Notes: generated by a model from the sequence alone, not told the origin. DNA of 64,000 nt from Minisyncoccota bacterium (GCA_020059915.1 JAGVBB010000003.1:40920-104919); one strand, 5' to 3'; shown: positions 22,958 to 53,846, counted from the first letter of the stretch. Numbers and translations are program-made.

Positions 22958-23224
22958 TTATCTTTTGTAATGAGTGTTGTGATACTCTTCGTATCTTGGA
23001 ATATTTATATGCGCGTAGAAGTTTCTATAAAAAACTCCTTTCAATTCGCTATAAAACATTCCAGCGAGTGTTAGTGCGGAAATTCCGATTACTAATAAGA
23101 AAACCGCAAAAACAATTGGATGAAGTGAGTACAATATTGCAATTATCCAAACAGATGTTATCAGGAACATATGTGCTGTAAGGATATTGAACAATGTTTT
23201 GTCAATATACATTTCCTCTTTCAT
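22958..23224 (-). CDS. hypothetical small membrane protein
   Basis: 88 aa with two predicted TM helices. Confidence 0.35.
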   Translation of the reverse strand: MKEEMYIDKTLFNILTAHMFLITSVWIIAILYSLHPIVFAVFLLVIGISALTLAGMFYSELKGVFYRNFYAHINIPRYEEYHNTHYKR

Positions 23225-32359: not shown

Positions 32360-32388
32360 AAAACCCCCACAGTGTGGGGGTTATTTTT
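32360..32388 (-). terminator. intrinsic terminator downstream of lexA
   Basis: aaacccccacagtgtgggggtt hairpin with a T-run on the minus strand. Confidence 0.5.
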
Positions 32389-33043
32389 ATAGTTTTGGTT
32401 TTTTGATAACCTGCACTACTTTTCCGTTAATCATATAATTGTCATTTTCGTGAATATAGATTGGTGGAAAATCCTGGCTTGAATCAGAGATAAGAATGAT
32501 CTGTTTGTTTTCCTCATCTTTGTGGAATCTTTTTATGTTTGCCATTCCATCAATAATTGAGAGGATAATATCGCCATTTTTTGGGTTCCTATCGGTGGTA
32601 TCTACAATGACATAGTCGCCATCTTCAATTTTCTTTTTATCAATGGTCGCACGGTTCATACTTGGACCCTTTACACGAATTGCAAACAACACATGTGATG
32701 CGGGACGAGGTTTTACGAGTGATTCAGAAATGCGAAGAAAGCCTTCAATATTTTCTTCTGCAATTGCTGTTGCGGGACCAGCACTTGCATATCCAAGAAT
32801 AGGGATCATGAGCAATCCGCCTTTTTGTTTTTTTGTTGGAGCATCCCATGTGTCTCGCGTGTTTTTAATAACACCATGCGCTTTATCGATATGGAGCAAT
32901 CCGCGTTTTTCCAATTGACCCATATGATGCTTTACCTTTTGTGGAGATGTTTCACCAATGAATGCGCCAATCTCACGCAATGAGAACATTGCAAGATTTT
33001 TTATTTTTGCGAGCTCCAATAATTTTTCTTGGATGGTGTGCAT
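32387..33043 (-). CDS. lexA: LexA-family repressor (S24 peptidase)
   Basis: N-terminal wHTH (LREIGAFIGETSPQKVKHHMGQLEKRGLL). C-terminal S24 domain with Ser-Lys dyad context (VKGPSMN ... K). Start reassigned to MHTIQ at 33043. Confidence 0.75.
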   Translation of the reverse strand: MHTIQEKLLELAKIKNLAMFSLREIGAFIGETSPQKVKHHMGQLEKRGLLHIDKAHGVIKNTRDTWDAPTKKQKGGLLMIPILGYASAGPATAIAEENIEGFLRISESLVKPRPASHVLFAIRVKGPSMNRATIDKKKIEDGDYVIVDTTDRNPKNGDIILSIIDGMANIKRFHKDEENKQIILISDSSQDFPPIYIHENDNYMINGKVVQVIKKPKL

Positions 33044-33056
33044 ATGTTTATATACA

Positions 33057-33071
33057 TAGTATATCATACTC
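33057..33071. promoter_or_regulatory. palindromic candidate operator at the lexA start
   Basis: ATATAC-TAT-GTATAT perfect 6-3-6 palindrome between the putative -10 and the ATG of lexA. Confidence 0.3.
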
Positions 33072-33211
33072 GCATAATACTTGACACTGTGGACAACTAA
33101 AACACAAGAAAACAAAAGACAGAATTAGTCAAAATGGGTTTAAAATTGACTACTCCCCCATTTAATGGTATTATCAATACATAATTCTTTAATAAAAAGT
33201 AGGAGGATATT

Positions 33212-33796
33212 ATGTCTGAAAACAAGGTGATCGCAATCAGCCAGTTTGCTCTTAGCCAATGGGGATGTCCGCATTGTGGATATCGCTCTGGATATATGCC
33301 AATACAGGTTGGTGGATCGGCAATGTGGATTTGTGGTGAGTGCCAGAAAAGATGTGCAGTTCTTGCAGATGGTATAACGAGATCAAAGATTGCAGTTGGT
33401 GCTCCCGCATACTATCCAGAATTACAGCCACACCCTTTAGAAGGAACTCCAAAACATGGAAGACCTGATAAAAAACCGGTTGGTGGTGGAGAATATTTTC
33501 GTTCTCGTGGTATTGGATTGGACGAAACGCCTGGATGCTTTGTTTGTGGTGGAAGTACAAAATTACATAGCAACATTGCTGCGTTTGTACAATGTAAAGA
33601 AGCTGGCGAACGAATCGTTAAAATGTTCGAAACAGGTGCGCGATTAGATTACCGGGAACATGAGCCAGACCGCATTCAGGTAAAAATAGGTGCTTGTGAT
33701 AAGCACTTTAGGAATCTTGAAATGCTCCATAATAAAACCTCAGAAACTGGTACTATTGTTGCAGAAATGATTTTCCGTTCAAAAACAGAAGTTTAA
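33212..33796 (+). CDS. hypothetical Cys-rich zinc-ribbon protein (divergent from lexA)
   Basis: CPHCG...CGEC and CFVCG...C...CDKH clusters. TTGACT-N17-TATTAT promoter at 33150-33180. No recognised family. Confidence 0.45.
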   Translation: MSENKVIAISQFALSQWGCPHCGYRSGYMPIQVGGSAMWICGECQKRCAVLADGITRSKIAVGAPAYYPELQPHPLEGTPKHGRPDKKPVGGGEYFRSRGIGLDETPGCFVCGGSTKLHSNIAAFVQCKEAGERIVKMFETGARLDYREHEPDRIQVKIGACDKHFRNLEMLHNKTSETGTIVAEMIFRSKTEV

Positions 33797-33826
33797 AAAA
33801 CTCCCCCGCTTTTGCGGGGGTTTTGT
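33795..33826 (+). terminator. bidirectional intrinsic terminator
   Basis: aaaactcccccgc-tttt-gcgggggttttgtt between convergent genes. Confidence 0.55.
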
Positions 33827-34811: not shown

Positions 34812-34892
34812 TTTTTATATTGACAATCTTTGACAAATCCCCGATTTATTGGTATTTTATTTACAACGTTAACAAATTATATTGGAGGAACA

Positions 34893-35402
34893 ATGGTTAA
34901 GGGCAAGAGGTTTTTTCGGCTTTCCATTGCTATTCAGGAACTATTTTTGTTGATTTCAGAGATGAATCATCTGAAGCAATCAAAGCAAACAGGCATCTTT
35001 GTATCCGTCTTCAACAAGGAAACAGGAGATGCTCTGATGGAGCAAACATTTGGATTACTCCATCTTGATCAGGAAGAATCATATAGAGTTTTTTGTCAGC
35101 AACGGGCATTTTGGCTTTTTAGCCATCCCGATGCAATTTGTTCTATTGAAAATGGCGAGGACGCATTTACTGGCGCTGTTTCAGGAAGAAAACATGTTGT
35201 TGCGGTTTCAGGACTTGATCCACATGACAATTCGGCAGTCGCCATTCTCATTTTGAGCCAGCTTGAAGATACACAAGAAGATCGCGATAAACGCGATGCA
35301 TATGTACGGATGTCAGAATGTTGGGATGATTTGTATATCATTCTTGATTTTCTTGCATGCGTACACAAGATGGATCTATTTGATCGGTTCAATGCAGTGT
35401 AA
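34893..35402 (+). CDS. hypothetical protein, paralog family member A
   Basis: Start at the ATG after GGAGG. Conserved core HPDAICSIENGEDAFTGAVSGRKHVVAVSGLDPHDNSAVAILIL is shared with 35441-35890 and 44472-45017. Confidence 0.5.
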   Translation: MVKGKRFFRLSIAIQELFLLISEMNHLKQSKQTGIFVSVFNKETGDALMEQTFGLLHLDQEESYRVFCQQRAFWLFSHPDAICSIENGEDAFTGAVSGRKHVVAVSGLDPHDNSAVAILILSQLEDTQEDRDKRDAYVRMSECWDDLYIILDFLACVHKMDLFDRFNAV

Positions 35403-35440: not shown

Positions 35441-35890
35441 ATGAATGTAGAAGATGCAACCAAAACTGTTGAAGCATTTATTGCTCTCATTTCCAAAACA
35501 CTCAAACCATTTCCAACACAACGACGTTTTGTGCAGGTATACGACAAAGAAGAACAAAGAGTTGTTATCAGTATGGTCTTGGGAAGTGGAAATAAAAAGA
35601 ATGGACTTGATACAAAACAAAGAATGCTTGCATGGCTTTTGGAACACCCGGATGCTGTTGCTTCGGCAGAAAGTTGCGGAGACGCCCCCGATGGCGGAAT
35701 TTCAGGACGAAGATATATTGTTTTGGTTTCTGGTGGGTTCCCGATTGATAATTCGGCGCTTGCGATTTTATTATTCGCACAGATTGAACACGAGCCGGTG
35801 GATACCATCAATCGAGAAACCTATATTGAAAAAGCTGGATGTAAGGAAGAACTTAATTCATTGCTCAATTTTCTCGAAATTACGATATAA
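35441..35890 (+). CDS. hypothetical protein, paralog family member B
   Basis: AGGAGG SD. Core HPDAVASAESCGDAPDGGISGRRYIVLVSGGFPIDNSALAILLFAQIEHEP. The terminator accgcgcatgatgcgcggttttttt at 35897-35921 follows. Confidence 0.5.
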   Translation: MNVEDATKTVEAFIALISKTLKPFPTQRRFVQVYDKEEQRVVISMVLGSGNKKNGLDTKQRMLAWLLEHPDAVASAESCGDAPDGGISGRRYIVLVSGGFPIDNSALAILLFAQIEHEPVDTINRETYIEKAGCKEELNSLLNFLEITI

Positions 35891-53687: not shown

Positions 53688-53846
53688 TTATGCGCCTACT
53701 TGAGGCTGATTCTCCGTTGTCGCTTCTGAGCTAGGAGTGACCTCGGTTTTTGTCTCGGTCGCTTCGCTCGCCACCAACTGAACGTTACAGGTTGAGCAGT
53801 TTCCTGCTTCTGATGATACTGCCTGACATTTTGGACACGTGTACAT
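53688..53846 (-). CDS. small zinc-ribbon protein (52 aa, below ORF-track cutoff)
   Basis: Translation MYTCPKCQAVSSEAGNCSTCNVQLVASEATETKTEVTPSSEATTENQPQVGA has CxxC...CxxC. It is GC-rich (about 50%) relative to its surroundings. A terminator aaatccgccctgttaggcggattt lies downstream on the minus strand. Confidence 0.45.
   Translation of the reverse strand: MYTCPKCQAVSSEAGNCSTCNVQLVASEATETKTEVTPSSEATTENQPQVGA

Follow-up and report, generated by a model that had tools for sequence, protein, structure and literature searches.

We analysed a 64,000-nucleotide stretch of a Minisyncoccota bacterium genome (GCA_020059915.1, JAGVBB010000003.1:40920-104919; hereafter, the window) that carries a LexA-like repressor gene and, divergent from it across a 168-bp spacer, a gene for a cysteine-rich zinc-ribbon protein. 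The lexA promoter contains a direct repeat, TGTCCA-CAG-TGTCAAG, that is likely to be the LexA operator, judging from its conservation in lexA promoters and its restriction to them. Taken together, the observations point to a divergent LexA that is expressed from an extended −10 promoter and has this TGTC direct repeat as its operator, to a chance origin of an AT-rich palindrome that an original prediction from the sequence had proposed as the operator, and to an independent zinc-ribbon gene. We consider this joint reading probable, if some way from secure. It replaces a plausible but wrong operator assignment with a concrete candidate for a divergent LexA clade.

The minus-strand open reading frame (ORF) at 32387-33115 comprises 242 codons from a TTG and encodes a LexA-like product. 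Its match to Peptidase_S24 (PF00717) is strong (E = 3.7e-22, 78.6 bits, above the Pfam cutoff of 23.3) and its match to LexA_DNA_bind (PF01726) is weak (E = 6e-4, 20 bits, below the Pfam gathering cutoff of 23.7); a precomputed PF01726 match is present on many homologues that are 55–65% identical to the window LexA. Because TIGR00498 (lexA) is the best NCBIfam match and is nearly full-length, we regard the protein as a divergent member of LexA and not as a different family, despite a score (93.3 bits) under the curated cutoff of 110.95. In a phmmer search against PDB sequences, residues 23-214 align with residues 29-197 of Escherichia coli LexA. Both LexA domains are covered, with residues 23-52 falling on the E. 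coli DNA-binding domain, and the catalytic positions match: ASAG with VAAG at the cleavage site, GPSM with GMSM (Ser119) and IKRF with VKRL (Lys156). The S24 match and this alignment bear out the predicted S24 autopeptidase, the predicted winged helix-turn-helix (wHTH) domain is weakly matched, and the Ala-Gly site and Ser/Lys dyad indicate a catalytically complete LexA. A 218-amino-acid protein that is 100% identical to it (P0121) carries the JGI name ‘repressor LexA’, and a neighbouring protein (P0001) is named ‘hypothetical protein C4565_04220 [Candidatus Parcubacteria bacterium]’. By these comparisons, the gene is a genuine but divergent lexA of a Parcubacteria bacterium of the Candidate Phyla Radiation (CPR).

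The N-terminal extension of the ORF is spurious, as had been suspected. The best 120 LexA homologues are nearly all 215–223 amino acids long and cover 90% of the 242-amino-acid ORF; ATGCAYAC (encoding MHT) begins lexA in all of approximately 50 orthologous loci; and in the four closest orthologues (L030-L033, with 83–87% identical LexA), a TAA closes the frame 9–18 nt upstream of the ATG. We therefore place the start of lexA at the ATG at 33043-33041 (MHTIQ), which the original prediction also favoured, and take 33044-33115 to be non-coding promoter DNA. The orthologues have no longer N terminus over the palindrome, and such an extension was ruled out as coding by the homologue lengths and the in-frame stops.

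A promoter scan of this upstream DNA found GTGTCA-18-TATACT with a TG for lexA. In a five-promoter alignment with orthologues, the counterparts of the extended −10 element TGaTATACT are TGATATAAT, TGGTATAAT and TGCTATAAT. From the end of the −10, the distance to the lexA ATG is 14 nt in the window group and 6–7 nt in more distant orthologues, which have TATAAT, and no Shine–Dalgarno sequence precedes lexA in either. (Our Shine–Dalgarno census of the window ORFs is crude, and its longest-ORF starts are unreliable.) The lexA mRNAs of this clade are thus predicted to be leaderless or nearly so. In the window, minus-strand transcription of lexA would begin at the extended −10 promoter, cover this one gene and stop at the hairpin that follows its stop codon (Table 1).

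What is conserved upstream of the −10 is the direct repeat. The block AGT(T/A)GTCCACAGTGTCAAG (33080-33098, minus strand) is kept in the promoters of the window and L030-L033, but neither the palindrome region nor any of the DNA farther upstream than the block is conserved among them. More widely, a YGTMA-N4-YGTCA repeat with a period of 9 bp occurs in most of 22 non-redundant metagenome lexA promoters (for example, TGTCAACTCTGTCA, TGTCAACAGTGTCA, CGTCAACGGCGTCA, AGTCAAATTTGTCA and TGTAAAGCCTGTCA), and additional lexA loci retrieved by exact protein look-up carry variants of it, such as CGTAAAGGCCGTCAAGGG in L115. We counted hexamers without bias over 14 effectively independent lexA promoter families. 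The top-ranking hexamers were GTCAAG (11.1 of 14 families; 0.24 expected) and TGTCAA (11.0 of 14; 0.44 expected), both above TATAAT, and none of 300 shuffles reached these family counts.

The repeat is also specific to lexA. We built an 18-nt position-specific scoring matrix (PSSM) from 14 distinct lexA promoters and scanned 733 kb on both strands, with the expectation taken from block shuffles. At 18 bits or more there were 48 matches versus 0.8 expected, all of them on the sense strand and just upstream of a lexA orthologue, except for one in L035 that lies upstream of the ORF preceding lexA. This L035 match, which was outside the training set, is 382 nt before lexA and 52 nt before the ATG of the preceding 87-amino-acid ORF; the site in the window has the same offset (−52 from the ATG). 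L115 and L116, also outside the training set, score 15.9 bits. The site in the window scores 22.3 bits, and the next best window scores are 14.2 and 12.1 bits; the latter match (53822-53837) was set aside, as it codes for the CPKC of a 52-amino-acid zinc-ribbon ORF.

Autoregulation is usual for LexA, and because it is the rule, the repeat as operator is the most economical reading of these patterns. Several points weigh against it. Because lexA promoters served as the training set of the PSSM, its matches there are partly circular, and the independent evidence consists of the specificity and the untrained matches. No second gene besides lexA has the motif in the scanned sequence, and the window lacks recA and uvr (a search for recA, uvr and dinB for a regulon test found none there). 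Several orthologues have the repeat farther upstream (about −40 to −75), before the −35 and not over the −35 or −10, an unusual place for a repressor. TGTCAA, moreover, reads as the −35 consensus TTGACA on the opposite strand. Finally, the conserved block includes a DnaA-box-like 9-mer, and another protein could be the ligand.

Some of these points would fit an alternative in which the conserved block serves a different protein (DnaA, for instance, at TTGTCCACA) or is an element of promoter architecture such as reversed −35-like hexamers, with the true LexA operator elsewhere. DnaA-box-like 9-mers (TTRTCCACA or TGTGGATAA) occur in approximately 8 of the 14 independent lexA promoter families and in either orientation, as is typical of DnaA boxes. 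The L039 group (L039-L082) has the consensus TTATCCACA in perfect form, as its reverse complement TGTGGATAA, approximately 41–49 nt upstream of lexA, and TCCACA and TGTGGA are enriched in the hexamer test. Lineages differ in where the repeat stands with respect to the −10, which would also be in keeping with such an element, as would the lack of regulon members. However, the 9-bp spacing and the orientation to lexA are fixed across lineages with differing upstream neighbours, the motif is restricted to lexA operon promoters, LexA is as a rule autoregulated, and lone DnaA boxes with one mismatch are no more frequent in the window than chance predicts. We regard this alternative as unlikely, if worth keeping in view; the DnaA-box-like 9-mers may belong to the LexA site or may provide a DnaA input into lexA. 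If the direct repeat is the operator, as we favour, a LexA dimer on TGTCCA-CAG-TGTCAAG, in the −35 place of the extended −10 promoter, would exclude RNA polymerase, and RecA-stimulated self-cleavage at the Ala-Gly site (ASAG) would free the lexA promoter.

The original prediction had instead placed an autoregulatory operator in a perfect palindrome, ATATAC-N3-GTATAT, said to lie between the −10 and the ATG. The palindrome exists, and its exact sequence is unique within the window, but it occupies 33050-33064 and not 33057-33071, a shift of 7 nt. Nor does it lie downstream of the −10: read along the lexA strand, the left arm shares five of the six bases of the hexamer TATACT. The view that it is a LexA operator peculiar to this lineage, spanning the −10 and the start of transcription, could be defended by the perfect 6-3-6 symmetry, by a position (−10 to +1) at which a bound repressor would block initiation and by the speed with which LexA motifs change (PMC8565304). 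Yet where the window has the right arm GTATAT, L030-L033 have TGGAAT, TAATAT, TAAGAA and AGTTAT, despite 83–87% identical LexA proteins and an identical recognition-region context, whereas the adjoining 17-nt block with the direct repeat is invariant. The hexamer census found ATATAC in 0.25 and GTATAT in 0.5 of the 14 effective lexA promoter families, with approximately 0.8 expected. The AT-rich window has 5.1 perfect inverted repeats with 6-bp arms (spacers of 0–8) per kb, which gives 0.86 expected in the 168-bp spacer. Because the right arm varies, the hexamers are unenriched, the −10 explains the left arm and the frequency is that of chance, we rejected the palindrome as a conserved operator; it is probably an AT-rich −10 hexamer joined to a chance match in the initiation region, and the opposite view strikes us as highly improbable. 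The classic LexA boxes are absent as well, as had been noted: no CTGT-N8-ACAG or GAAC-N4-GTTC with at most one mismatch occurs in 33044-33211, and their window-wide counts equal chance.

The divergent cysteine-rich gene is present behind the predicted TTGACT-17-TATTAT promoter, with a Shine–Dalgarno sequence, AGGAGG, at 33201-33206. It had been proposed as a candidate SOS-regulated gene, and its neighbourhood in relatives argues otherwise. None of 29 loci with zinc-ribbon orthologues has lexA within ±4 kb. Conversely, the zinc-ribbon gene is near lexA in none of 80 fetched lexA loci (±3 kb; genome and metagenome contigs, approximately 53 of which encode orthologues of at least 43% identity) and in none of nine further loci, L110-L118 (±10 kb). 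In the closest relatives, gene order matches that of the window on both sides: one side has p190/p149, TspO and p138, and the other has lexA, p137, p249, p223, a DEAD helicase and, by the Pfam tables, fmt. Between the p138 homologue and lexA, these relatives have a Cyt-b5 gene and a 137-amino-acid gene in the slot, and no zinc-ribbon gene. No conserved neighbours of the zinc-ribbon family were found across its loci. The repeat of the lexA promoters is absent from the promoters of the zinc-ribbon orthologues, in which a few matches of 13–15 bits are the genes’ own −35 hexamers on the opposite strand. A conserved lexA/zinc-ribbon module is ruled out by this absence of synteny in genome, metagenome and collinear loci, and SOS control of the zinc-ribbon gene is unsupported because the gene is never beside lexA elsewhere and lacks the motif. 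As read from its signals, a σ70 promoter, a strong Shine–Dalgarno sequence and a terminator of its own, it is transcribed independently; it sits in a variable slot and neighbours lexA in this lineage only.

It could still be argued that LexA has newly recruited the zinc-ribbon gene as an SOS gene in this one lineage, co-repressing it through the 168-bp spacer and an AGTCAA/TTGACT pair over its −35. The arrangement is divergent, an inverted repeat (TAGTCAA-N13-TTGACTA) overlaps the −35, and AGTCA is a half-site variant in some lexA promoters (L030, L036 and L055). However, the strong repeat site is approximately 50 bp upstream of the −35 of the zinc-ribbon gene, and the inverted repeat lacks a direct partner at 9 bp. 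Co-regulation through the inverted repeat is conceivable but unsupported, because it scores under 11 bits and inverted repeats with 7-bp arms are common (approximately 4.7 per kb in the window). With adjacency confined to this lineage and orthologue promoters that lack the motif, we judge such co-repression very improbable.

The zinc-ribbon protein belongs to a large, conserved and uncharacterized Patescibacteria-wide family that may deserve study in its own right. More than 250 homologues with 50–65% identity carry Parcubacteria, Paceibacterota, Nealsonbacteria and Patescibacteria names, and a profile search of 1.84 billion representatives returned 943 clusters at E values up to 1e-3, many with the C-terminal domain only. 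In the first metal site, C19-P-x-C22 and C41-x-x-C44 are invariant; in the second, C109 and C162-x-x-H165 are invariant, and C112 and C128 are nearly so (C128 in a 30-sequence alignment). The AlphaFold2 model has a mean pLDDT (predicted local distance difference test score) of 95.3. We found no Pfam domain on the protein and no match in the PDB, and PHROGs, PADLOC and NCBIfam gave a weak zinc-ribbon match and nothing more. The N-terminal CPxC...CxxC ribbon weakly matches the eL43/L37Ae-type zinc ribbon (E = 0.006), and suggests binding to nucleic acid or protein. The only relatives outside the family are unannotated Rhizobium phage proteins of 158 amino acids, 40% identical over residues 86-184, among them the hypothetical protein gp015 of Rhizobium phage RHph_TM30 (L119). 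The BFVD model A0A7S5R5G8 superposes on the C-terminal domain (34% identity, E = 5e-9, template-modelling (TM) score of 0.61). The phage relatives sit among nucleotide-metabolism genes (phosphoribosyltransferase, cytidyltransferase and PurZ-like).

Table 1. Features of the lexA locus and its divergent neighbour, numbered from the first nucleotide of the window
Feature	Position	Strand	Description
lexA coding sequence	32387..33043	-	218 amino acids, start MHTIQEKLL; N-terminal wHTH (weak match), ASAG cleavage site, GPSM serine, KRF lysine
G+C-rich terminator-like hairpin	32362..32382	.	Directly after the lexA stop codon; on the lexA strand only TTTT follows
Spurious N-terminal extension of the ORF	33044..33115	-	24 codons; homologue coverage, in-frame stops in L030-L033, promoter DNA
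Palindrome ATATAC-ATA-GTATAT	33050..33064	.	Proposed in the original prediction, coordinates corrected; plus strand ATATACATAGTATAT
Extended −10 of the lexA promoter, TGaTATACT	33058..33066	-	Promoter scan and orthologue alignment; −10 hexamer TATACT at 33063-33058
Candidate LexA operator, block AGTTGTCCACAGTGTCAAGTA	33078..33098	-	Contains TGTCCA-CAG-TGTCAAG (33078-33095), a direct repeat with a period of 9 bp that covers the −35 position
DnaA-box-like TTGTCCACA	33088..33096	-	One mismatch from consensus TTATCCACA; overlaps the first half-site
Inverted repeat TAGTCAA-N13-TTGACTA	33126..33152	.	Right arm is the −35 of the zinc-ribbon gene; PSSM score <11 bits
Zinc-ribbon gene promoter, TTGACT-17-TATTAT	33146..33174	+	TG-extended; promoter scan
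Zinc-ribbon gene	33212..33796	+	194 amino acids, two zinc sites: N-terminal CPxC...CxxC ribbon; C-terminal CFxC...C...CxxH domain
Bidirectional intrinsic terminator	33803..33820	.	After the zinc-ribbon gene

Elsewhere in the window, an Rfam scan found two tRNAs only. The 52-amino-acid zinc-ribbon ORF mentioned above (MYTCPKCQ...CSTC; 53688-53846, minus strand) looks unannotated and has its own terminator; a YceI-like gene and a gene for a P-type Ca-ATPase flank the 365-bp gap that contains it. Downstream of the divergent zinc-ribbon gene, tandem paralogous genes at 34830-35402 and 35441-35890 (plus strand) have no family match and are also duplicated in the collinear locus L110 (6269-7371). 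At 23165-23176, GAACATATGTGC resembles a Gram-positive-type LexA box with one mismatch, and such matches are at chance count in the window; it lies near the start of an 88-amino-acid ORF, within a 2.4-kb stretch of small ORFs only.

Some related repressors occur in other settings. In L115 (8683-12997) and L116, the loci of P0213, a DNA methylase gene is followed by the lexA-like gene, a 168-amino-acid ORF, a SMODS nucleotidyltransferase and a SEC-C protein, a defence-island-like setting for a LexA-family repressor. In L117 (6618-10660) and L118, a 150-bp spacer with TGTCAAC and an ACGTAAA-N3-ACGTAAA repeat separates lexA from a divergent dnaE (DNA polymerase III alpha). L044 (1090-3666; Ga0255092_1001465) encodes a 51% identical LexA that also starts with MHTIQEKLL, divergent from an E. 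coli-like recA-recX in G+C-rich DNA, and its lexA/recA spacer holds a repeat with a 12-bp period (CCCCTGTCGTTG, twice). This recA, of proteobacterial type and the only recA among the fetched loci, has no strong motif in its own promoter. Because the L044 LexA adjoins an E. coli-like recA-recX in G+C-rich DNA, the LexA clade extends beyond Patescibacteria. One could go further and read YGTMAA-N3-TGTCAAG as a new LexA motif of a broad MHTIQEKLL clade with leaderless, extended −10 promoters, L044 included, and the zinc protein as possibly captured by LexA in one lineage; we think this doubtful.

The candidate direct repeat is probably an instance of what has already been described for Patescibacteria. 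SOS circuitry in reduced CPR genomes is the subject of one published study (PMID 28618189), which, according to the supplement of a 2021 Nucleic Acids Research paper, validated the LexA of one Collierbacteria and one Parcubacteria genome; the LexA proteins of that study are KKW01361.1 and KKU00362.1. Should the repeat be confirmed, scanning a whole genome for it would delineate the SOS regulon in these organisms.

Compared with canonical LexA (E. coli and Bacillus subtilis; TIGR00498; PF01726 with PF00717), the window LexA shares the two-domain layout (its wHTH weakly matched), the Ala-Gly site, the Ser/Lys dyad and a single gene that appears to be autoregulated. It differs in scoring below both the TIGR00498 and the PF01726 cutoffs, and its locus differs in having neither CTGT-N8-ACAG nor GAAC-N4-GTTC, a predicted near-leaderless mRNA and a direct repeat as the candidate operator. 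The non-canonical LexA of Bacteroidetes (PMC8565304) is likewise a divergent S24 repressor with a lineage-specific motif, but it has a CI-like HTH N-terminal domain and palindromic motifs (GGA-N5-TCC as well as CTAA-N5-TTAG), whereas the window LexA has a weakly matched LexA-type wHTH domain. The direct repeat as operator is supported by two strands of this literature: LexA-binding motifs are hypervariable (PMC8565304), and, in PMC7739468, direct-repeat LexA motifs are described as having evolved repeatedly, with the Patescibacteria SOS study cited among the cases. The boxes of Alphaproteobacteria (GTTC-N7-GTTC), of Balneolaeota and of Patescibacteria (Sanchez-Osuna et al. 2017, PMID 28618189) are reported to consist of head-to-tail half-sites, which is also the arrangement in the window; the half-site in the window is YGTCA with a 9-bp period, whereas the GTTC boxes have an 11-bp period.

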